In this document: piece after piece, positions 2,409-21,471 of the stretch
How positions within the stretch are numbered: the first letter of the stretch is position 1
Layout of the letters: every line of letters starts with the position of its first letter
Origin: a virus
DNA: 44,775 bases
IMG/VR virus record: IMGVR_UViG_3300029532_000007
Span: 1 to 44,775 of that record
Reading direction: 5' to 3' (one strand)
Notes under the pieces: model-generated
Told to the model about the DNA's origin: nothing
What the model saw: the letters and a program-made list of their open reading frames with translations, nothing else
Databases searched by the model: none
Program-made: the position numbers and the translations under genes

Positions 2409-2825
2409 ATGACAACACCACGAGGACTTAGAAACAATAATCCGCTCAATATCGAAAAGACCAAAGGCGGCAACCCCTGGCAGGGCGAGATAGTGCCGTC
2501 CGGCGACAGCCGTTTCGCACAGTTCAGAACGATAGCTTACGGCTACCGTGCCGCCTTCAAACTGCTGAACAATTACCAGCGCAATTACGGTCTGGACACG
2601 ATACGCAAGATGATCGGCCGCTGGGCGCCGTCGAATGAAAACCACACGGACACCTATGTCCGTACCGTGGCGGAGAGATCGGGCGTACCAGCCGACAGTC
2701 GAATCACCACGACAAACCGGGATGTGATGGTGCCCATTGTGGCGGCGATGTCGTTTGTGGAGAACGGCGTTGATGCCAAGATGCTCGACGTACAGGCCGG
2801 ATGGGAACTATTTATCAAAGGATAA
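2409..2825 (+). CDS. Putative endolysin / cell-wall hydrolase family protein (RNNNP-x-NI motif family)
   Basis: 138 aa with N-terminal GLRNNNPLNIEK motif. I recall this motif from phage proteins annotated as structural protein P5 / peptidoglycan hydrolase. The position after a TM protein fits. Confidence 0.45.
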   Translation: MTTPRGLRNNNPLNIEKTKGGNPWQGEIVPSGDSRFAQFRTIAYGYRAAFKLLNNYQRNYGLDTIRKMIGRWAPSNENHTDTYVRTVAERSGVPADSRITTTNRDVMVPIVAAMSFVENGVDAKMLDVQAGWELFIKG

Positions 2826-2836
2826 AACGTATTATT

Positions 2837-3841
2837 ATGAGAATCAACTTATACAACGAAGATTGCCTGATTGGAATGAAGCGTATCCCCGATGCAAGTG
2901 TGGACTGCGTGCTGACCGACCCGCCGTACTTGTACCTCAAGAATCAGAAACTCGACCGTTCTTTCGATGAGCAGGCGTTTTTTGCAGAGGTAAAGCGGAT
3001 TTTGAAAAAAGATGGATTCATCGTAATGTTCGGACGCGGAACCTCCTTCTATCGCTGGAATACGATTTTGGCAGACCTTGGATTCAATTTCAAAGAGGAA
3101 ATCATCTGGGATAAATCTTATATCTCATCCCCATTGATGGCGATATCTCGTGTGCACGAAACCGTCTCGATATATACGAAGGGGAAGGGCACGATAAATC
3201 GCTGTAAGGTACCTTATCTGGAGGCGAAAGCGCATAATATTGACTCTATTATCGCTGACATCAAGCGATTATGCACTATTTTTCATAATCCAAAGTCATT
3301 AAAGGCCGTAGAGGATTTTTTGACACAAAATAAACTAAAATACGAGCCAGATAAACGCCGCAGATGTCACGTAACCGCGCAAACAGGCTTTGGCAGCGAA
3401 GATCGAAATGCCGCTGTCATGCGGGCAATGAGCGACGGATACACGGAAAAAAGTATTATCCGATCCGATTTATATAAATGTAGTACATCCAATAAACATA
3501 ATTTTCACGGTGATATGAGAGTAGGCGATCGATCATGTAATGTGATGCAATCTGTCGAGTTCGGTCAAAGCGAGAAATCCATCATCAAACAGCCCCGCGA
3601 TCACTATGCAACGATTCATCCTACGCAGAAGCCTGTGCGGCTGTTGGAACGCCTGCTTGCGCTCGTAACCAAAGAGGGCGATATAATACTCGATCCGTTT
3701 GCAGGTTCGGCCTCGACGGCCATTGCCTGCATGGATACGGGGAGGGATTTCATCGGATACGAGATCGACAAGGAGTATTATGTCAGAGCGATGGGTCGAA
3801 TTTCGAAACACCAACCGAAATTAGGTTTACAAACGGCATGA
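2837..3841 (+). CDS. Beta-class DNA methyltransferase (N6-adenine or N4-cytosine; N6_N4_Mtase type)
   Basis: Motif IV DPPY near the N-terminus (VDCVLTDPPYLY) and motif I at the C-terminus (ILDPFAGSASTAIAC..GRDFIGYEID). The start is moved to ATG 2837, after the upstream stop at 2825. Confidence 0.85.
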   Translation: MRINLYNEDCLIGMKRIPDASVDCVLTDPPYLYLKNQKLDRSFDEQAFFAEVKRILKKDGFIVMFGRGTSFYRWNTILADLGFNFKEEIIWDKSYISSPLMAISRVHETVSIYTKGKGTINRCKVPYLEAKAHNIDSIIADIKRLCTIFHNPKSLKAVEDFLTQNKLKYEPDKRRRCHVTAQTGFGSEDRNAAVMRAMSDGYTEKSIIRSDLYKCSTSNKHNFHGDMRVGDRSCNVMQSVEFGQSEKSIIKQPRDHYATIHPTQKPVRLLERLLALVTKEGDIILDPFAGSASTAIACMDTGRDFIGYEIDKEYYVRAMGRISKHQPKLGLQTA

Positions 3842-4521
3842 AAAAATATCTCTTCATCGCCCTGCTGATAGTTAGCGGGTTGTTGTGGCTGCAAACGGTG
3901 CGGTTGCGAGGTGAACGGTCCGAGCGCAAGCGCGTCCAGTCCAACAACGAGGTATTGACCGACAGCGTGGAGTTCTACCGGACGGCCAGCGGCAAACATG
4001 CCGCATCCCGGCAGATACTTGAACTCCGAACCGGAGAACTGGAGCGGTACAATGCGCAACTGGCCGCGCAGATCCGGGAGCTGCGGATCAAGGTCCGGCG
4101 GCTGGAGGCGGCGGCCACGACGGCCACGCGGACCGAGGTGCAGATCACGGCGCCCCTGGAACCCGCAGACCCGCAGTCGTCGTCAGCATGGGAGAAATAC
4201 GGCGCAGGGGTGCGGAGGGCTGCCGATTCGGTAAAGACGGCCCTTAACCGGAAATTCCCCGGACTGCCGAGCGTCCCCGAAGCGAAGGTTTTCAGATGGT
4301 CGGATCGCCATGTGAGCGTGGACGGCATAATCCGGGCTGATTCGGTGAGTTGCCAGGTTGTAAGCATCGACACACTCCAGCAGATTGTCCACCGGGTCCC
4401 GCGCCGGTTCCTGTTCATCCGATGGGGCACGAAGGCAATCCGGCAAGAGGTTGTATCGTCGAATCCGCATACCAACATTATCTATACCGAGTACATAGAA
4501 TTTAATAAAGGAAAGCGATGA
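3838..4521 (+). CDS. N-terminally membrane-anchored coiled-coil protein (function unknown; lysis- or envelope-associated?)
   Basis: 227 aa. Has the signal-anchor MKKYLFIALLIVSGLLWL, then an Arg/Glu-rich helix. The start overlaps the upstream stop (ATGA). Confidence 0.6.
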   Translation: MKKYLFIALLIVSGLLWLQTVRLRGERSERKRVQSNNEVLTDSVEFYRTASGKHAASRQILELRTGELERYNAQLAAQIRELRIKVRRLEAAATTATRTEVQITAPLEPADPQSSSAWEKYGAGVRRAADSVKTALNRKFPGLPSVPEAKVFRWSDRHVSVDGIIRADSVSCQVVSIDTLQQIVHRVPRRFLFIRWGTKAIRQEVVSSNPHTNIIYTEYIEFNKGKR

Positions 4522-8742: not shown

Positions 8743-9972
8743 TCAAAACCGCGTCAGCAATGCGGCATTTTTCTCTCGTTCTTCTCGTTCAAAAGAAGCG
8801 AGATAATTTTCTGTCGTCTTCAAGTCCGTATGTCCGAGGCTTTCGGAAATATAGGCTATACTTGCCCCGGAACGCTTCAATACGGTGGCGAATGAATGGC
8901 GGGCCGTATATGTTGAAACCGGAGGCAACCCTAATGCTTTGGAAATAGACCTAAATTTACGATTTATGCAGCTTGTTAGGTCTTTTGCCTTTTGCCGCTG
9001 CTCCTCAATAGATTCTTTGCCCGTAAGAATAGGAAATATAAAACTATCAGGACTTTCTTTGTTGCCCCATCGTGATATAATATCCTGCATTTGAGGTACA
9101 ATTATCGCCCGCACGGCTTTCCGGGACTTTGTGCGGTGCTCCGTCTTTTTCCGTACATAACTTATTTCCCCGTCCTCAATATCACTATATCGCAACCTTA
9201 CGAAGTCGGCGACATTGATTCCATTGCACAAATACATAAACAGCCAATAATCGCGGTATTTTGCCGTTGCTTCGTATCCATCATCATAACGGGCTATCAA
9301 GCCTATCTGCTCCAATGTAAGGGCCAGTTTACGCCCCTCTCCTTCCTGTATCTCGTAGCGCCCCCGACCGAATGGATATTGCGCCTCCTTTACAATACCA
9401 ATAGCCCGGGCCTGGTTGAATATCGATCGCAGAGCGCGCATATATATCGCAATAGTTGTCTGTCCCTTACCCGAAGCACGCATAAACTCTTCGAATCGAC
9501 GCAGCCATGAAATAGATACGTCGATATATTGAACCTCCCGCTTTGAAAAAGCATTCATCGACAGCAACAATGCACGCAGAATATCCGCCGTCCCTATGTG
9601 GGATGTCTCCCGCAATTCCTGCTCTTTGATTTGGATGGATGCATTTACCGAAGTAGCGCCGGCTCCTTTCAAACGAGCACCTAACAATTCAAGCGTGAAA
9701 CAACCTTTTGACGTTAAATCCTCGACAGCTTGTCGAACCAATTCAAAACTATTTTCTATATCTTTGCGAACGGATACAAGCGAATGAAGGCGCGTCGCAT
9801 TGAGCCGCTGCCAATCATCGGGCATCATACTCTTACCGGTTGGGTAATAAGAGCGCACACGACGATACGATACCCGGATACGCACGGGATACTGGCCATT
9901 TGCCAACGCCCGGCGGGTGTCGAGAATAGTGGCCACCGTTACGCCATCCTTTGAATAGTAGTGGTTGTTCAT
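8743..9972 (-). CDS. int: Tyrosine recombinase / phage integrase (Bacteroidota type with N-terminal arm-binding domain)
   Basis: 409 aa. The C-terminal catalytic region has ARHSFATVLKRSGASIAYISESLGHTDLKTTENYL. attP lies immediately upstream. Confidence 0.9.
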   Translation of the reverse strand: MNNHYYSKDGVTVATILDTRRALANGQYPVRIRVSYRRVRSYYPTGKSMMPDDWQRLNATRLHSLVSVRKDIENSFELVRQAVEDLTSKGCFTLELLGARLKGAGATSVNASIQIKEQELRETSHIGTADILRALLLSMNAFSKREVQYIDVSISWLRRFEEFMRASGKGQTTIAIYMRALRSIFNQARAIGIVKEAQYPFGRGRYEIQEGEGRKLALTLEQIGLIARYDDGYEATAKYRDYWLFMYLCNGINVADFVRLRYSDIEDGEISYVRKKTEHRTKSRKAVRAIIVPQMQDIISRWGNKESPDSFIFPILTGKESIEEQRQKAKDLTSCINRKFRSISKALGLPPVSTYTARHSFATVLKRSGASIAYISESLGHTDLKTTENYLASFEREEREKNAALLTRF

Positions 9973-10645: not shown

Positions 10646-10891
10646 TTAAAATAAAGGCAGCTCTTGCTGCCATCCGTCAATGTGTCCCCGTAAAATCCGT
10701 TTGAAAGCCCGCCACAAATGCGGCAAAGACCTATGTTTCTTGAAATGATATTTGAAATCGTGGTCGTGTTTGACCCCGATCTTTCGTTCCGTGTCCACAA
10801 CAAGCTGCATCAACTGTCCCCTCGAATAGCTTATATGGACCTCGGAATCGTCCCGCTGGCCGCCCCTGCGTTTTTCTTTCTGTTCGCCCAT
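10646..10891 (-). CDS. Hypothetical protein (weak call)
   Basis: 81-aa ORF filling the gap between two minus-strand genes. No motif. Confidence 0.35.
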   Translation of the reverse strand: MGEQKEKRRGGQRDDSEVHISYSRGQLMQLVVDTERKIGVKHDHDFKYHFKKHRSLPHLWRAFKRILRGHIDGWQQELPLF

Positions 10892-10916
10892 TGTTTTCCC
10901 GAATTAATAACTACCT

Positions 10917-11312
10917 TTACGTTGTCGGCGTTAGGGGTGATCTTTCGCTTTGCATCGCCTGCCCGGCATACACCCGCCGCCAGTACTCGCGGTCAGTATT
11001 TAAGTTTTGCTTAATAGCTGTCCCGACCATTTTGCGGGCGCCAGCAATATGGTCATACTCTCCCCGCTCCAGCTTCTCCAGATAGTCATCGTCGCGCATC
11101 ATCAGGTCGTCCTCACTTGCAATATCAGGGTACATTTGTCCGTTTTCAAGATAAGCACCAATTTCGGAATACAGTTTTTTAGGGTCGCCATAAACAAGCA
11201 CCCTAACAGGCAGGTAGGCACTATTTGTGATGTGTGAAAATTCAACGGGAAGCCCGCCCCTCGTGCACACCGCCGCACCTCGCTTGGCGGCCTCCAAATC
11301 GAAATTCTTCAT
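10917..11312 (-). CDS. Hypothetical early protein
   Basis: 131-aa ORF, 3 nt from the upstream gene. Confidence 0.6.
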   Translation of the reverse strand: MKNFDLEAAKRGAAVCTRGGLPVEFSHITNSAYLPVRVLVYGDPKKLYSEIGAYLENGQMYPDIASEDDLMMRDDDYLEKLERGEYDHIAGARKMVGTAIKQNLNTDREYWRRVYAGQAMQSERSPLTPTT

Positions 11313-13199: not shown

Positions 13200-13439
13200 C
13201 TATTCTTGTCGTTTTAGATTGTTTGTCCTGTTGATCTCCGCGGCAATAGCCTCGACGGTCTTGCCCCGGCCTCGGCCATTGCGGCGCACTCGCTCTATCT
13301 TCTGAAACCGACGAATAACTCCAGTAGGTTGAAGGTATTCGTCAAGACCCGAATAGGCGACAACCTCATTGAGCCATTCCTTTACGTCGAACCCATCCGG
13401 CGGTCCTTGCCAAATACCATCAATCAAAAAGTTTTTCAT
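13200..13439 (-). CDS. Hypothetical early protein
   Basis: 79-aa ORF whose start overlaps the upstream stop. Confidence 0.55.
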   Translation of the reverse strand: MKNFLIDGIWQGPPDGFDVKEWLNEVVAYSGLDEYLQPTGVIRRFQKIERVRRNGRGRGKTVEAIAAEINRTNNLKRQE

Positions 13440-13923: not shown

Positions 13924-14346
13924 TCAGAATACTACAACCATGCTTGGGAACGGTGCGCTATTCTTCGCTCCGCCAAACTTTAACCGTCCTCGAATAAATC
14001 GAATCTCTTTCGCTTTACGATAAATAAACTCGTGAAAATAACATGTATCCGTTCGGGCCGGAATAAGGGCGACTACGATTGTTCCTGGCTTGCGCGATTC
14101 TTCATAGCACTTTTTTACCCAGTCACAAATACTCCTTCCATAAGGCGGGTTACAAAAAACAATTTCACCGGCCCAATTCTGCAATAACCCATCATCGTGT
14201 TTTGTGTAAAACTTCGCGCACTTCGCATTATCCGGACACGCGCAGGGGCCAAGAGTAAAATGAAACTCCGCATTGAGTTTGTCGAAGAAGTCCTGTGGAG
14301 TAGCCCACAAATCTGTTGCACTTGAAAACATTACATTTGTATTCAT
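13924..14346 (-). CDS. dam: Phage Dam-family DNA N6-adenine methyltransferase
   Basis: MNTNVMFSSATDLWATPQDFFDKLNAEFHFTLGPCA..NAKCAKFYTK..VFCNPPYGR..LIPARTDT..IRFIRGRLKFGG..APFPSMVVVF is the classic phage Dam (NPPY) pattern. The start is moved to ATG 14346. Confidence 0.9.
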   Translation of the reverse strand: MNTNVMFSSATDLWATPQDFFDKLNAEFHFTLGPCACPDNAKCAKFYTKHDDGLLQNWAGEIVFCNPPYGRSICDWVKKCYEESRKPGTIVVALIPARTDTCYFHEFIYRKAKEIRFIRGRLKFGGAKNSAPFPSMVVVF

Positions 14347-14423
14347 TTTCTCTTTCCTTTTAGCTCCGCAACGCGGCGGAGGATAAAGTTCTCTCGGTAT
14401 GCCATATACATCCGGTAATTCCA

Positions 14424-14525
14424 TCATTCAACAAATTCCGAAAAATGAATCGGATGTATCATGCGTATTGGAGCTAACTTCTTGTCAGCCTCCCGCCGCA
14501 GTCGTTTCGGTAGGCGTGTTTTCAT
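14424..14525 (-). CDS. Very small ORF (33 aa) bridging the Cys-rich protein and Dam (weak)
   Basis: MKTRLPKRLRREADKKLAPIRMIHPIHFSEFVE*. Its start overlaps the upstream stop (ATGA). Confidence 0.25.
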   Translation of the reverse strand: MKTRLPKRLRREADKKLAPIRMIHPIHFSEFVE

Positions 14526-14902
14526 CGTTTAATCAACTTTGCATGTAAACCATCAATCTCATACTCCCGGTAGCATTTATCGCAGATGATTGGCCCATCC
14601 TCATAAACCGGGCATTCCAAATCTTCCCAAACGTCAGTATAATTAATGCCCCTCGCCTGAATATCATTTCCGCAAATGCACCTGAACTCACAGACGACTT
14701 TATACTTAATATCTTCCACATGAATGTATACATCCAACCGGCCATCATTGGCATCCTTTTCCCGTTGTGTACGTTCGCGCTCGATCTTCTGCAAAAGCGC
14801 GATTTGTTTGGGATTGCCGATTTCAGGTTTTATATCCCCGAGCATAAACTTGCCATCCACGAGACGCAACGGCTGCTCAATGCTTGTTACCTGATCTTTC
14901 AT
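14522..14902 (-). CDS. Cys-rich (zinc-ribbon-like) protein of unknown function
   Basis: 126 aa. It contains CEFRCICGN ... ECPVYEDGPIICDKC. The start overlaps the radical-SAM stop. Confidence 0.6.
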   Translation of the reverse strand: MKDQVTSIEQPLRLVDGKFMLGDIKPEIGNPKQIALLQKIERERTQREKDANDGRLDVYIHVEDIKYKVVCEFRCICGNDIQARGINYTDVWEDLECPVYEDGPIICDKCYREYEIDGLHAKLIKR

Positions 14903-15777
14903 CTCTTGTAATTTTTAAATTCAACACTCTTAAAAATAGCCTTGTGATTGCACCAACGAGCCAATCGTTTCTGCTCATTCGTCGGTTTGATGTTATTATC
15001 GAAATCCCGGTAAGGCTGGGCAAACGGGCAGACTTTCAGCTTGCGTAGGGCGTTGATCCGCTCCAATGATTCATCGACATCTTGAATCAGACAGTAGACG
15101 AAAATGCGATATGGCTTGATGCCTCGGCGCCCCAACTCTTTGACACACTTTGTAACCGCCTCCAGTTGGGACATACGGTCGCAGGCGAACCGAATATGCC
15201 GAATCCATTTCACCCGTGCCAGCAGGTCGAGGATGTAGAGATCATCGCACGCCCTCCGGGCATCCAGCCCTTGATTGAAATCGACTGCGATCCCCATGCG
15301 GACAATCTCCTCGATCTGTTCCAATCCGAACTCCGACGCCAGCACGTTGTTGTCGAGCAACACGGCCTGACGCTTGTCGCCGAGGAACTCCCGGAGCGGG
15401 GATGCCGGTCGGATGGCTCCCTCCTTGTGCGAAACGATGCACCACGGGCAGCGGTTCGGGCAACCACGGGTCAGGAAACCATAGGCTTCCCTGACGCCAT
15501 AGAGCGAGTAATCCGGGCAGATGTGTTCCACCTCTTCCGGCAGCACCGTCGCATAGTCCCGGAATCCCGTTCCGCCCCGGATTACCTCGCAATGGTAGAT
15601 GTCCGGACAATCGGCCGTGAAGGTGAAGACCTTCGACATGTAAACCCGGTCGTAGCACCCGAACATCGGGTCTGCGAACTCCACTCGGTCGCCCTGCGCC
15701 TTATGCCACGCCGATATTTTCATCAGCGCGAGATTCGGGAAATGATGCCCGTCTATGTCAACCAAACCTATTCGCAT
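14899..15777 (-). CDS. Radical SAM protein, compact class-B-like (N-terminal Rossmann/B12-binding-like domain)
   Basis: It has GFLTRGCPNRCPWC (CxxxCxxC) about 105 aa from the MRIGLVDIDGHHFPNLALMKISAWHKAQGDRVEF start. The start is set at ATG 15777 because the longer ORF is an out-of-frame overlap with dcm. Confidence 0.8.
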   Translation of the reverse strand: MRIGLVDIDGHHFPNLALMKISAWHKAQGDRVEFADPMFGCYDRVYMSKVFTFTADCPDIYHCEVIRGGTGFRDYATVLPEEVEHICPDYSLYGVREAYGFLTRGCPNRCPWCIVSHKEGAIRPASPLREFLGDKRQAVLLDNNVLASEFGLEQIEEIVRMGIAVDFNQGLDARRACDDLYILDLLARVKWIRHIRFACDRMSQLEAVTKCVKELGRRGIKPYRIFVYCLIQDVDESLERINALRKLKVCPFAQPYRDFDNNIKPTNEQKRLARWCNHKAIFKSVEFKNYKR

Positions 15778-16916
15778 AGTCCGTATTTCAACATATTCCT
15801 GAATATCCCCATCATCGGAGCCTTTACGATACTGTTCCCGGCCAGCTTGTATTGCTGCGTATCGCTGATTCCCACAGCTTGTATCTTGTCGATGTCGCCG
15901 TCCGAAACATCCATCAGCCGCAAACATTCTCGGGGCGTAAGGCGGCGGATGCAGCCTGCATAGTCCAGCAAATTGTTCTGCTCCCACGCACTTCCTGTAA
16001 TCGTTCCGGGAATATCCGCTTCGCCGCCTTTGTTGAAGCCGCGTCCCCGCATCAGGATTTTTGGTTCGAGGCCGCCGCCCGATTTCGTCGTTATCGTCGG
16101 GCTGATGCCGGTCGGATCGTATACCCGGTATTGCTGTCGGTTCCAGTCCGTTTCCTTTGTCGCACCGATCTGAATAGACTTGTCGGATATGAAAGTACCA
16201 GTCCAATTTGCGCAACCTTTCGCTGTTAAACACATCGCCACTTCACCGTTGATAGCCGTATATTTCCCTAACTTCTTTTTGACGTAATTTATCCCGCGCT
16301 CGTTCAAAAAATACTTCTCGTCTACCTCCAGCTCCAGCACATCTTTCAGCCGCTTTTCCAACCGAACCGGATGCGGAAACTCATACCAGCATCCGTTAAG
16401 AATGGAGAGCATAAACACACGTTCCCGGTTCTGCGGCACGCCGTAGTCTTTGGCGTTGAGTATTTCCGTGTAATTGACATAATCGAGCGAGCGAAGCCAC
16501 GATTCCCATTTGAGAAACAGCGGACGGTATTTATCCGACACGAGGGCTTTCACATTCTCCATCAGCAGGAATTTAGGACGCTTGGCCGCGATCGGCCGAC
16601 GGCATTCCCATAACAGAGATGACCGGGTACCCGAATCTTCTTCGAAGCCCTTCTGTTCTCCAGCACTACTGATGTCGGTACACGGAAACGAGTAGGTGAA
16701 CAGGTCGAAGTCCGGAACGGCGTTCCAATCGATTTTCGTGATGTCGCCGTAATTTCGGTCTGCCAACTCCGGAAATACTGCATTATGGGCTTTGATCGCC
16801 CATCTGTCGATCTCCGACCAGCCTACGCACTCGTAATTCGCACCTATGTCCCGGAGGGCCATAAGTTGGCTGTCATAGCCGGAAAAACTTGTGAATACTC
16901 GTAATTTCATGGTCAT
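15768..16916 (-). CDS. dcm: DNA (cytosine-5) methyltransferase
   Basis: Motifs FSGYDS (I), FPCTDISSAG (IV), ENV (VI), QNRERVF (VIII) and GNSI (X). Candidate starts are 16910, 16916 and 16922. Confidence 0.9.
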   Translation of the reverse strand: MTMKLRVFTSFSGYDSQLMALRDIGANYECVGWSEIDRWAIKAHNAVFPELADRNYGDITKIDWNAVPDFDLFTYSFPCTDISSAGEQKGFEEDSGTRSSLLWECRRPIAAKRPKFLLMENVKALVSDKYRPLFLKWESWLRSLDYVNYTEILNAKDYGVPQNRERVFMLSILNGCWYEFPHPVRLEKRLKDVLELEVDEKYFLNERGINYVKKKLGKYTAINGEVAMCLTAKGCANWTGTFISDKSIQIGATKETDWNRQQYRVYDPTGISPTITTKSGGGLEPKILMRGRGFNKGGEADIPGTITGSAWEQNNLLDYAGCIRRLTPRECLRLMDVSDGDIDKIQAVGISDTQQYKLAGNSIVKAPMMGIFRNMLKYGLCE

Positions 16917-16987
16917 TCGCATAACAACTCGTAATAGCTCGCCGCAAGGCTGTCTTTTCCGCCCGAAAAGGTGACGATGACTTTCAT
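16913..16987 (-). pseudogene. 24-codon relic of a PP-loop ATPase (PAPS-reductase/DndC/QueC-type N-terminus)
   Basis: Hand-translated MKVIVTFSGGKDSLAASYYELLCE*. It has a beta-strand plus an exact SGGxDS PP-loop signature and stops inside the dcm start region. Confidence 0.4.
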
Positions 16988-16998
16988 AACGTCCTCCG

Positions 16999-17796
16999 TT
17001 AATACTCCACGGCCGCCCGGCGGTCGATGAAGAAGTGGATACCCGGAGCGCATTCGTTCCAGCGGTCACCGTCAAAGTCGGAGACCTCGACGGTAGCGCC
17101 GACCGTATACACGAAGTTCGCATCATGGGTCGAATGAATTGTCTCGATGTCGGCTTTAGTTCCATCAGCATTCTGAATCTCCACCACATAGGCTTTGTCG
17201 CAGCGACATTTTTCGCCTCCGGCAGAGCTGCGGCGGGCATCCTCCGGGATTTGCAGCTTCACGATATATTCCGAAGCCTTCTTCCAGCCGATAAAACTGC
17301 CATCGGTGGGGCAAGCCATGTATGTACCTATGGCTTCGCGCAGGTCGGCTCCGTACAGGTTGGCTTCGCGCAGGTTGGCTCCGTACAGGTTGGCTCCGCG
17401 CAGGTCGGCTCCGCGCAGTTTGGCTCCGTACAGGACGGCTCCGTACAGGACGGCTCCGCGCAGGTTGGCTCCGTACAGGTTGGCTTCGCGCAGGTCGGCT
17501 CCGTACAGGTTGGCTTCGCGCAGGTTGGCTCCGCGCAGGTCGGCTTCGCGCAGGTTGGCTCCGTACAGGTTGGCTCCGCGCAGGTTGGCTCCGTACAGGT
17601 TGGCTCCGCGCAGGTCGGCTCCGTACAGGTCGGCTCCGCGCAGTTTGGCTCCGTACAGGACGGCTCCGCGCAGGTTGGCTCCGCCTTTCAAGGCCTCCGT
17701 TACCGTTTTGGCAAGCGTATTGTCAACGCTCGAATACTCGAAAAGGATAGAACCTGTCCAGCGGTTCTTGATCGATATTTTAATCTCTTTGTTCAT
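16999..17796 (-). CDS. Pentapeptide-repeat protein with non-repeat C-terminal domain
   Basis: 265 aa. About 25 consecutive A(N/D)L(R/Y)(G/E) pentapeptides are followed by a ~100-aa domain ending in CAPGIHFF. Confidence 0.9.
17332..17676. repeat. 23 consecutive 15-nt tandem units (GGCTyCGyrCAGkwy) encoding the pentapeptide repeats
   Basis: Counted unit by unit. Only about 5 positions vary, and multi-unit blocks recur (e.g. 17407-17451 vs 17632-17676). Confidence 0.95.
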
Positions 17797-17806
17797 GGTT
17801 GTTGTG

Positions 17807-18166
17807 TCACATGGTTAAATACCAACGTATTTCCGACTGGAATTCCTCGATCGTCCGGCAGACGACGTGTCTGTTCCCGTTCGTGATTGCGAGTGAACGC
17901 CATTCGATTTGCGCGTCCGATAGGACGGAACGTCGGTCGGGAGTCTTCATTTCGATACATAGGGCGTTGAAGCCTCCACGTCCGAGCAGCAGGATAAGGT
18001 CGGTAACGCCTGCCGTTACGCCCTCGGCTTTCATTATCGCGGCTTCCGTGCGGCCCCGGGCGCCGCCGTTCGGTACGGCGAACAGGAGCTTCCCGATGTC
18101 CGGGTATTGGAGTCGAAACCAGCTGACGCACATTCGTTGCAGGTGTGATTCGATGTGTCGTGTCAT
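17807..18166 (-). CDS. VRR-NUC domain nuclease
   Basis: [51 protein letters not shown] is the VRR-NUC pattern (D..ExK). Confidence 0.8.
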
Positions 18167-19839: not shown

Positions 19840-19978
19840 GGCGTTTCATTATTTTCTTGTACAACAATTTGGCGTTTCGCAATGCGTTCTGCCCTTTCAC
19901 GGTTTGACCCCGGCATTGATCCAGGTCCCGGAGGATGCGCACCACCTGTGCGATCTCCCACTCTTTCAACTCATACAT
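19784..19978 (-). CDS. Hypothetical small protein (weak; overlaps the next gene by 56 nt)
   Basis: 64-aa ORF whose start overlaps the exonuclease stop. Confidence 0.35.
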   Translation of the reverse strand: MYELKEWEIAQVVRILRDLDQCRGQTVKGQNALRNAKLLYKKIMKRHDKDRRDQKGGQGHTRPA

Positions 19979-20625
19979 AAGCGAACCATTTTAGCGGCTA
20001 TTTGTTCCTTGATCCGGTCGGCGTTATCAAGGGCATCGCGGACTCTCTTTAGAAATGCCTCGTCCCGATCCACACGCAGGATTTTGAGCATGAAATATCG
20101 GTTTTGACACCGAGGGTCGTAGGATATGAAATCACACCACTTGCGTCCGGTTACGAGCAGGTTCCCTTGAATCTGGGCATAGTACTCGGGATTAATACCG
20201 TGCAGCTCCGAAGCAGTCTCCAACAGCAGATATTTGGCGTGTATCGCCGAGTTGTAAGGACACTTGATCTCGATGATACCGTCCTCTCCGACTAATCCGT
20301 CGGGGCTGCCTCCAAAAGTCCGCGACCACTCGATAAAACCGCACAGATCGACCGTGTTGCCCGTGCGATCCTCGTAAGCTATCCGAGCCTCCGGCTCGTG
20401 TTGGTGCCCCCATCGGACCTCGCGTGTGTTCAGTTCGTTATAGTCCAGGCAAGTACCGTTAGTCAAATCCTCGGCCAGCTTGTCGAAAATGTAGCTTTCG
20501 GTAACCTTCGATACGTCGCCCGACCTGGGTTTGGTCATTAGCTTGTGAAGCTCTGACGAGGTGAAATGAAATAAGCGGTCGTTGAACCATTCGGGGGTGT
20601 TCTGATATGTATTCGAGCCATTCAT
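19966..20625 (-). CDS. YqaJ-type (lambda Exo-like) recombination exonuclease
   Basis: TPEWFNDRLFHFTSSELHKLM..GHQHEPEARIAYE..SPDGLV..IIEIKCP..YYAQIQGNLLVTGRKWCDFISYD. It is paired with RecT. Confidence 0.85.
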   Translation of the reverse strand: MNGSNTYQNTPEWFNDRLFHFTSSELHKLMTKPRSGDVSKVTESYIFDKLAEDLTNGTCLDYNELNTREVRWGHQHEPEARIAYEDRTGNTVDLCGFIEWSRTFGGSPDGLVGEDGIIEIKCPYNSAIHAKYLLLETASELHGINPEYYAQIQGNLLVTGRKWCDFISYDPRCQNRYFMLKILRVDRDEAFLKRVRDALDNADRIKEQIAAKMVRLCMS

Positions 20626-20637
20626 ATACTTGTTTGA

Positions 20638-21471
20638 TTATTTTTCGGGGAAAAGTTTGCCGTCATCGACCATCACCCTCTCTGCTGCTGCGGCAATATC
20701 ATCGACAGCTTTCGTCTTTGTAATCATCTCGCGCAGGTTGTCGGCCTCTTCCTTGTTGATAAGCCCGCGGAGCAGCGCGGCATTCACATCCGCCTCGGTC
20801 TTGATGGATGAAATGTCGAATACGGCTGCCTGCCGCCCCGGAGTAACGCCTTCGTAGGTGGTATCTACCACATCGCGGATTTCCTCGACCGTCTGCATCC
20901 CCATAGATATTTCCGGGGCATATGTTCGCTGGAAAAACGCCGCCGAGCGGTACTGAAGCATCAGTTCGGGCATCGTCTTCCACTTGCTGCCGGCCTTGCC
21001 GTACCATCCTTCGTCTTTGGCCATCTGCATCGACACCCAGGCGCCGTGCAGCGGGCTGCCCGTGGTCTTGTCAATGGCCCAGGCCCGACAACGCCACTTA
21101 TCCAGATCGCCTTCGTTCTCATGTTCGTAGCGAAGCGGCGAGAACCGCCCGCAGGTGTTCAGCGCAGCGATCAGGAACTTCGACGACCAGCCTACATTAC
21201 CGTAGACTACGTAGAGGTTCTGCATCACCAGCAGCGGGGACATCCCGATACGGTTGGCCATTTCCAGCGCAATGATACAGTTGGCGACAGCCTCCGGGGT
21301 TTTAGATTTCTGATACTGCTCCGGGACGATGGTGGACGAAGCCAGCGATATAGCCATGCGCTGTGCGTTCTCGAAATTGGCCTGCGAGGCGAACACGAGC
21401 ATCGAATCCCCCGATGATGGGGCCGTAATAGTCGCAGGGACGGTTTCCTGCTGAATCTTGTTATCTTCCAT
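20638..21471 (-). CDS. recT: RecT-family single-strand annealing protein
   Basis: IALEMANRIGMSPLLVMQNLYVVYGNVGWSSKFLIAALN..CRAWAIDKTTG..MAKDEGW..SKWKTMPELMLQYRSAAFF. Confidence 0.85.
   Translation of the reverse strand: MEDNKIQQETVPATITAPSSGDSMLVFASQANFENAQRMAISLASSTIVPEQYQKSKTPEAVANCIIALEMANRIGMSPLLVMQNLYVVYGNVGWSSKFLIAALNTCGRFSPLRYEHENEGDLDKWRCRAWAIDKTTGSPLHGAWVSMQMAKDEGWYGKAGSKWKTMPELMLQYRSAAFFQRTYAPEISMGMQTVEEIRDVVDTTYEGVTPGRQAAVFDISSIKTEADVNAALLRGLINKEEADNLREMITKTKAVDDIAAAAERVMVDDGKLFPEK

Follow-up and report, generated by a model that had tools for sequence, protein, structure and literature searches.

Gene content of the module

The 44,775-nt viral sequence IMGVR_UViG_3300029532_000007 (IMG/VR, positions 1 to 44,775; hereafter the window) carries on its minus strand, at 13.9–17.0 kb, a module that includes a gene for a radical S-adenosylmethionine (rSAM) protein. 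Reading the open reading frames (ORFs) and their junctions gives, in this order, a C5-cytosine DNA methyltransferase (C5 MTase; here called Dcm), the rSAM protein, a four-cysteine protein (the Cys-rich protein), a 33-aa ORF, and a Dam-type MTase. In front of Dcm lies a 24-aa remnant of a 3'-phosphoadenosine-5'-phosphosulfate (PAPS) reductase gene (Table 1). The operon genes, their coordinates, and their overlapping stop and start codons were found as given in the initial annotation of this sequence.

The junctions are tight throughout. The TGA of the remnant ORF overlaps the Dcm ATG at 16916, for which in-frame alternatives exist at 16922 and 16910. The Dcm stop codon TAG ends at 15768 and the rSAM ATG lies at 15777, a 10-nt overlap contained in ATGCGAATAG. 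ATGA overlaps join the rSAM stop to the start of the Cys-rich gene (14899–14902) and the Cys-rich stop to the start of the 33-aa ORF (14522–14525), and a further ATGA joins the 33-aa ORF to the Dam gene if the long Dam start (14427) is used. Such stop/start overlaps are the norm in the phage region around the module and are not in themselves beyond chance. A scan for sigma-70 promoters and terminators gave nothing above the shuffled expectation, with a sigma-70 model that does not cover Bacteroidota promoters.

Table 1. Features of the rSAM module and other window genes referred to in the text.
Feature	Position (nt)	Strand	Matches or basis
24-aa PAPS-reductase remnant ORF (MKVIVTFSGGKDSLAASYYELLCE)	16913..16987	-	Sequence; intact L173/L174 homologue with PF01507; DNA alignment
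Dcm, orphan C5-cytosine DNA methyltransferase	15768..16916	-	PF00145 8e-54; TIGR00675 2e-53; PHROG 116
Radical-SAM (rSAM) protein, 292 aa	14899..15777	-	PHROG 9298 7e-91
Cys-rich protein, 126 aa	14522..14902	-	No match in Pfam, PHROG, NCBIfam, or PADLOC
Putative 33-aa ORF	14424..14525	-	Read from sequence; no family match
Orphan Dam-family N6-adenine MTase, 140 aa	13924..14346	-	PF05869 5e-30; PHROG 111 1e-59; PADLOC orphan MTase 6e-72
Pentapeptide-repeat + DUF5758 protein, directly upstream of the module	16999..17796	-	PF00805 5e-54; PF19062 2e-35
VRR-NUC nuclease	17807..18166	-	
RecE-like exonuclease and RecT pair	19966..21471	-	
Tyrosine integrase	8743..9972	-	
Third DNA MTase (N6_N4_Mtase)	2801..3841	+	PF01555 1e-38
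DUF6549 protein	3838..4521	+	

The radical-SAM protein and its family

The rSAM protein contains a single CxxxCxxC cluster motif (C106, C110, and C113) within TRGCPNRCPWC (residues 103–113), the segment already pointed out in the initial annotation. It belongs to PHROG 9298 ("radical SAM domain protein"), with residues 1–291 aligned to positions 1–292 of the 305-position profile. The Pfam model Radical_SAM (PF04055) reaches 20.6 bits, below its cut-off of 29.5, and aligns to the cluster loop only; a precomputed PF04055 match is present in a minority of the homologues. A shared-word search returned more than 8,000 homologues, and in a profile search 4,198 clusters (50% identity) passed E ≤ 1e-3, 707 of them also E ≤ 1e-30. 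Across 95 diverse family members, the only three conserved cysteines are the invariant cluster ligands, so that the enzyme has one cluster and none of the auxiliary cysteines seen in methylthiotransferases; approximately 25 polar or glycine positions are also conserved. Further invariant residues are N15, K20, D89, Y90, R104, E119, D142, N144, Q169, D172, R174, D200, and R240.

The AlphaFold2 (AF2) model of the protein (predicted local distance difference test (pLDDT) 87.8) combines a small N-terminal beta-alpha-beta sheet domain of approximately 95 aa, truncated to four strands and one helix, with a partial barrel of alternating beta/alpha units starting at residue ~98, consistent with the Rossmann-like domain of ~100 aa that had been predicted in front of the cluster. 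Foldseek searches against the PDB retrieved generic TIM barrels and HemN only. Searches against BFVD retrieved viral COG1032 Fe-S oxidoreductases or "B12-binding_like" proteins (E 2e-5 to 1e-4), together with many viral rSAM models, and thus show a resemblance in overall architecture to the class B or B12-binding type first suggested by the motif. B12-binding models (Pfam and the B12-rSAM models of NCBIfam) did not match the protein. No NCBIfam, PADLOC, or significant PDB sequence match was obtained, in agreement with the earlier view that it is not QueE, NrdG, or viperin; these enzymes and the methylthiotransferases were ruled out for want of homology, partner genes, and auxiliary cysteines. 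The idea that the 33-aa ORF or the Cys-rich protein is the peptide substrate of a class B rSAM enzyme, as in the maturation of ribosomally synthesized and post-translationally modified peptides, was dropped because neither is conserved beyond close relatives.

Family members are carried by phages, prophages, and plasmid-like or integrative and conjugative element (ICE)-like elements of strict anaerobes, with hosts among the Bacteroidales, Oscillospiraceae and other Clostridia, Desulfovibrio, and Marinitoga, and also by viruses of the archaeal Methanomassiliicoccales. The homologue in the archaeal virus vir335 is annotated as phrog_9298. A literature search found no paper describing the PHROG 9298 rSAM family. 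Thermus phage Cumys also has an rSAM module, which includes DUF483, but it is described as a different one.

Replacement of a PAPS-reductase gene by Dcm

Dcm was initially annotated as a C5 MTase with all canonical motifs, and this holds: PF00145 scores 183.7 bits against a cut-off of 22, and FSGYDS, FPC, ENV, QNRER, and GNS (motifs I, IV, VI, VIII, and X) can be read in its translation. Its last five codons (YGLCE*) stem from a PAPS-reductase gene that it replaced. In two related loci (L173 and L174), the gene order is VRR-NUC nuclease, pentapeptide protein, an intact 292-aa PAPS reductase, and rSAM, the last two joined by the same 10-nt overlap. Alignment of the L173 DNA with the window shows what is left of the PAPS-reductase gene on either side of Dcm: approximately 45 nt from its 5' end and approximately 20 nt from its 3' end. 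The internally deleted remnant ORF joins the N-terminal PP-loop (SGGKDS) of the PAPS-reductase-like gene to its C-terminal end, marking the site where the gene body was replaced by the Dcm cassette. Furthermore, all C5 MTase and PAPS-reductase genes upstream of rSAMs at least 79% identical to the window copy have the YGLCE* end and an identical junction (TACGGAYTATGCGAATAGG). The replaced gene is of the BrxP/DndC PP-loop type. Judged from these alignments, PAPS reductase–rSAM is the ancestral order in the window lineage, and Dcm a recently swapped-in cassette in the slot upstream of the conserved rSAM gene.

This history changes how the Dcm/rSAM overlap is to be read. The initial annotation took it as translational coupling and as the sign of a pathway in which Dcm makes 5-methylcytosine (5mC) and rSAM elaborates it, and the overlap in the window, taken alone, favours that view. 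However, the PAPS reductase has left its first and last codons in the window; the overlap is therefore inherited from the PAPS-reductase/rSAM junction and is no longer a sign of such a pathway. In many lineages, the rSAM start overlaps the upstream gene, whichever this is (ArdA-like, primase, DnaC-like, and N6/N4 MTase genes in other lineages), because the conserved codons 3–4 of rSAM (ATA GGN) contain TAG. The stop/start overlaps of the module are probably explained by an inherited junction and by the joint expression of genes in a compact phage operon, rather than by a dedicated Dcm–rSAM pathway.

Deletion derivatives of the locus are also found. In L171 (1456–2004) and L172 (1408–1956), a truncated PAPS reductase precedes a hybrid ORF of 182 aa, in which a Dcm fragment is combined with the C-terminal part of the Cys-rich protein; most of Dcm is gone. 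Both have lost rSAM entirely, so this gene is dispensable in at least some relatives.

Conservation of rSAM with changing neighbours

The upstream slot varies among rSAMs 79–100% identical to the window copy. It can be occupied by a C5 MTase (of two types), an N6/N4 MTase, or a PAPS reductase, or it can be empty, and some close relatives (L009, L010, L028, and L031) have no slot gene within 10 kb. The ratio of nonsynonymous to synonymous substitution rates (dN/dS) against the window copy is 0.04–0.09 in all but one of eight comparisons, the exception being L020 (0.21), and this holds regardless of the neighbouring gene. rSAM is under strong purifying selection where the upstream gene has been replaced or is absent, which argues against a dependence on a PAPS reductase and equally on Dcm-made 5mC: rSAMs with 88–94% identity lack any MTase within 10 kb, yet their dN/dS is ~0.06.

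A more distant family member, 39.7% identical to the window copy, is encoded in the complete 36.7-kb genome of Clostridium phage phiCT453B and retains every family residue that is at least 90% conserved. The annotation of this phage contains no MTase, PAPS-reductase, or ParB gene, and a six-frame scan with hidden Markov models (HMMs) and motifs found no MTase or PAPS-reductase match, which speaks against either enzyme as a necessary partner. In LoVEphage, a PAPS reductase is found 1.2 kb upstream of rSAM, and an RtcB tRNA ligase 1.2 kb downstream; a Dam gene is also close by. In these comparisons, rSAM is the conserved backbone gene of the locus, and the upstream genes are exchangeable cassettes.

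Gene neighbourhoods across the family

We collected 161 rSAM loci, in which ORFs were called and clustered, and C5 MTase and PAPS-reductase-like genes were scored with separate HMMs. The percentages refer to the 50 lineages that remained after dereplication at 80% rSAM identity and for which both flanks were present. The co-occurrence with C5 MTases to be expected if rSAM acted on 5mC did not emerge, as a C5 MTase is present within 100 nt of rSAM in only 9% of the lineages and within 2.5 kb in 17%. The corresponding values are 17% and 38% for any DNA MTase, 10% and 17% for PAPS-reductase-like genes (PF01507), and 25% and 49% for either of the two.

Nevertheless, these genes are significantly enriched near rSAM over control genes from the same loci. 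An MTase or PAPS-reductase-like gene is located at most 300 nt from rSAM in 16 of the 50 lineages (32%) vs. 8.9% for the controls (p = 4e-6), and their density is highest in the 1 kb upstream of rSAM. The 5mC pathway draws some support from C5 MTases alone (within 300 nt in 8/50 lineages vs. 3.7% of controls, p = 4e-4), which lie directly upstream of rSAM in several independent lineages (groups 0, 4, 12, and 13). A functional pairing with the PAPS reductase is likewise favoured by PAPS-reductase-like genes at this distance (4/50 vs. 0.3%, p = 2e-5), by PF01507 proteins directly upstream of rSAM in many diverse loci, and by the resemblance of these neighbours to BrxP, SspD, and DndC. The link between rSAM and DNA-modifying genes is real, but it is neither obligate nor specific to C5 MTases.

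Gene fusions point in the same direction. Protein P0253 is a genuine 450-aa rSAM-Dam ORF (L162, 684–2036), and an 812-aa protein fuses rSAM to ParB_N and helix-turn-helix (HTH) domains (L163, 6001–8439) on an ICE-like contig with relaxase, ParA, and serine recombinase genes. A third fusion, of an N-terminal winged HTH domain to rSAM in P0244, is weak (PF08222, E 5e-4, below cut-off), and the extensions (C-/N-terminal) of the fusion proteins P0126 and P0155 received no assignment. Neighbouring genes of similar character include a ParA-ParB-rSAM operon with a 4-nt overlap (L177, 2702–4527), a ParB-like gene adjoining rSAM in vir335, an MTase gene overlapping rSAM in the Oscillospiraceae phage NatCom_21982, and ArdA and LPD28 in Oscillospiraceae elements. 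TET-associated glycosyltransferases (TAGTs) accompanied by ParB-like genes are found near rSAM at three loci only (L032, L069, and L076/L165), with no TET gene in those stretches. Their presence would suit a 5mC pathway, but TAGTs co-occur with rSAM in only 2 of 62 lineages.

Taken together, the context groups rSAM with those genes of mobile elements that serve DNA modification and anti-restriction. The part of the initial interpretation that linked the rSAM family to DNA-modifying genes is upheld by the statistics and by the Dam and ParB fusions; the proposed sequence of Dcm-made 5mC, rSAM, and a zinc-ribbon protein is not.

Several of these loci have features of their own. In the environmental lytic-type phage L165 (= L076; 7015–10599), rSAM lies between a primase and an SNF2 helicase gene, beyond which follow two tandem pairs of ParB-like and TAGT genes and, after these, an rSAM-SPASM gene unrelated to the first rSAM. 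The 11 kb examined contain no TET/JBP gene. The sister contig L164 has MTase and pyridoxal phosphate (PLP)-enzyme genes in place of the TAGT pairs. DUF5131 (phage Gp37/Gp68 family, PF07505 1e-41; L124, 9253–10200) recurs near rSAM in three lineages (L124, L142, and L075), and its protein bears a CxxxCxxC-like motif of its own (GCLHGCQYC).

Companion genes and genomic context

The Dam protein scores 104.8 bits with PF05869 (cut-off 28.1) and has CNPPYG in its translation; with TIGR01712 it reaches 85.9, below the equivalog cut-off of 97. Its start is ambiguous between 14427 and 14346. The latter, which is also the start initially annotated, is favoured because the profiles of homologues begin at residue 28 of the long ORF (PADLOC orphan MTase: residues 28–167 vs. 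profile positions 1–139). Both MTases of the module are high-scoring, full-length family members with no cognate restriction enzyme nearby, and are shown to be ordinary orphan phage methylases, which usually shield phage DNA from restriction.

The Cys-rich protein has four invariant cysteines (C75, C77, C107, and C110; CxC...CxxC), which makes a zinc site plausible; its AF2 model is poor (pLDDT 54). Its 194 homologues are all at least 69% identical, compared to more than 8,000 homologues of rSAM, and it is found only in the rSAM lineage of the window. The zinc-ribbon character proposed in the initial annotation may thus be correct, but being lineage-specific, the protein cannot be a general targeting partner of rSAM, and it adds no support for the 5mC pathway in which it would be the guide. 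In L007, a 77-aa chimera (10876–11109) begins as the Cys-rich protein, of which it has the N-terminal half, and ends with the C-terminal part of a 79-aa protein encoded at 13200–13439 in the window. The two window proteins share the segment QKIER(E/V)R, and the chimera looks as if the Cys domain and Dam had been lost through recombination or a deletion.

The window is a temperate phage or prophage with the module at the end of a replication/recombination block, and it also encodes an integrase, a RecE-like exonuclease and RecT pair, and a VRR-NUC nuclease (Table 1). The host belongs to the gut Bacteroidales, with the nearest genome matches in Muribaculaceae and Alistipes, and the module is situated in the early, accessory part of the phage. 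The pentapeptide protein upstream of the module may be another anti-restriction or anti-gyrase-poison gene, as pentapeptide proteins can mimic DNA; its repeats yield long spurious ORFs on the opposite strand (17035–17886 and 17195–17818). A third DNA MTase, followed by a DUF6549 protein, is encoded on the other strand, far from the operon.

Possible function of the rSAM protein

We consider it about an even chance (probability roughly 0.5) that rSAM is a radical enzyme that needs no partner, probably acts on DNA, and anchors a hot spot of anti-restriction cassettes. The gene, encoding an enzyme with a single [4Fe-4S] cluster and a COG1032-like architecture, would anchor a recombination hot spot at which DNA-modification and anti-restriction cassettes are exchanged; in the upstream slot of the window, an orphan C5 MTase has taken the place of the body of an ancestral PAPS-reductase-like gene. 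The enzyme would act alone, not on Dcm-made 5mC. It would reductively cleave SAM, and the 5'-deoxyadenosyl radical would modify nucleic acid, most probably DNA. Mobile elements of anaerobes would thereby have a means of counter-defence that does not require oxygen. Only tentatively do we put forward the more specific proposal that PHROG 9298 is a self-sufficient, O2-independent DNA-modifying enzyme, used by phages, plasmids, and ICEs of bacterial and archaeal strict anaerobes with or without companion MTases or PP-loop enzymes, and that its radical-derived base or backbone mark blocks restriction or other defences.

Several points weigh against a DNA-directed enzyme. Homology searches of rSAM gave no match identifying a substrate, and its best PDB sequence matches, MiaB and RimO, are insignificant (E 0.06–1) and confined to the cluster loop. 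With a median pI of 8.6, the family is only mildly basic, and the core protein has no recognised DNA-binding domain. Fusions are rare, with a handful among the 150 representatives listed. In approximately half of the lineages, no gene recognisable as DNA-modifying lies within 2.5 kb of rSAM, so the association may reflect a shared accessory-gene hot spot and not function. MTases were detected with home-made HMMs and the DPPY motif, which may miss families.

Many of the same observations would fit a target other than DNA. The substrate of rSAM could be RNA (tRNA or rRNA), a protein, or a small molecule, and the enzyme might serve, for instance, to overcome a different defence system or to tune host metabolism; its location near MTases would then be due only to the accessory-gene hot spot. 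The high variability of its neighbourhoods, its isolated position in phiCT453B, the weak resemblance to MiaB and RimO, and the RtcB tRNA ligase of LoVEphage are all compatible with this. Against it stand several independent rSAM fusions (with Dam, with ParB_N-HTH, and a weak one with HTH), the enrichment of DNA-modifying genes over same-loci controls, and the lack of the auxiliary-cluster cysteines and TRAM domain of methylthiotransferases. We regard a non-DNA target as rather unlikely.

A functional pair formed by the PAPS-reductase-like PP-loop ATPase and rSAM is less probable still. In such a two-step modification of nucleic acid, adenylation or thiolation would be followed by radical chemistry, loosely as in QueC/QueE or Dnd/Ssp, and the insertion of Dcm would have broken the pair in the window, leaving rSAM partly orphaned there. 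The ancestral gene order of L173/L174 and the PAPS reductase of LoVEphage fit such a pair, but the PAPS-reductase-like gene is present in only 10–17% of lineages, and rSAM persists under strong selection without it.

Finally, the pathway of the initial annotation is very improbable. In this anaerobic analogue of TET-MTase systems, rSAM would take a hydrogen from the 5-methyl group of Dcm-made 5mC, or from a neighbouring position, perhaps with the Cys-rich protein as its guide, and the product would be a hypermodified base. That the hosts are all anaerobes, where an O2-dependent TET could not work, speaks for it; against it, Dcm is a secondary replacement, and C5 MTases occur near rSAM in few lineages.

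If the preferred reading of rSAM as a DNA-acting enzyme is correct, it would bring new enzymology and perhaps a natural DNA modification not described before, with a bearing on sequencing-based epigenomics of the gut virome and on restriction-evasion tools; a stand-alone DNA writer would be the first such radical-SAM enzyme to mark DNA. Described post-replicative hypermodification of phage DNA mostly relies on polar chemistry or O2-dependent dioxygenases, and to our knowledge the diversification of DNA chemistry by mobile elements of strict anaerobes is largely unexplored. PHROG 9298 is one of the larger uncharacterised rSAM families of the mobilome, extending from gut Bacteroidales and Clostridia to methanogen viruses, and its rSAM-anchored slot swaps C5, N6/N4, and Dam methylases, PAPS-reductase-like enzymes, ArdA, and ParB genes. 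Even if rSAM does not act on DNA, it is a widespread, strongly conserved phage gene worth assigning. Since cultured carriers exist (phiCT453B, LoVEphage, and the temperate Bacteroides and Phocaeicola phages PV4-TP1, BI-TP1, and BKO1-TP3), the question is directly testable.

Comparison with known systems

Class B (cobalamin-dependent) and COG1032 rSAM enzymes share with the window protein an N-terminal Rossmann-like domain followed by a barrel with an RGCxxxCxxC loop. At 292 aa, however, rSAM is approximately half their usual size, and no solved class B structure is among its top Foldseek matches in the PDB. MiaB and RimO, its best though insignificant PDB matches at the cluster loop, also have an N-terminal domain, of flavodoxin-like type, before the rSAM core; in contrast to these enzymes, rSAM lacks the three N-terminal cysteines for a second [4Fe-4S] cluster and the TRAM domain.

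Phage-borne rSAM enzymes in a DNA-modification gene context are known from the 5-(2-aminoethyl)-2'-deoxyuridine (5-NedU) pathway of phage M6, which contains an rSAM isomerase (Lee et al. 2018, PMC5889632), and from QueE of the 7-deazaguanine pathways. Unlike in M6, the 5-hydroxymethyldeoxyuridine (5-hmdU) kinase, aGPT-Pplase, and PLP enzymes of the 5-NedU pathway are not among the families found. Unlike in the 7-deazaguanine pathways, QueC, QueD, FolE, and DpdA/TGT are absent from the annotated neighbours, and rSAM has no Pfam or NCBIfam QueE match. Compared to other orphan phage MTases (Dcm-type PF00145 and phage Dam PF05869), those of the module are unusual only in the five chimeric C-terminal residues of Dcm.

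The hypermodification clusters of phages that combine TET/5mYOX, C5 MTases, and glycosyltransferases (Burke et al. 2021, PMC8256090) resemble the module in that a phage C5 MTase stands beside an enzyme able to activate C-H bonds, and a few related rSAM loci carry TET-associated glycosyltransferases and ParB-like genes. In contrast to these clusters, the operon proteins have no TET/JBP domain, so that the oxidant would be rSAM, and the window has no glycosyltransferase. A C5 MTase is not an obligate companion of rSAM, as shown by its presence within 2.5 kb in only 17% of the 50 lineages and its absence from near-identical relatives and phiCT453B; across the rSAM family, the MTase is both dispensable and interchangeable.

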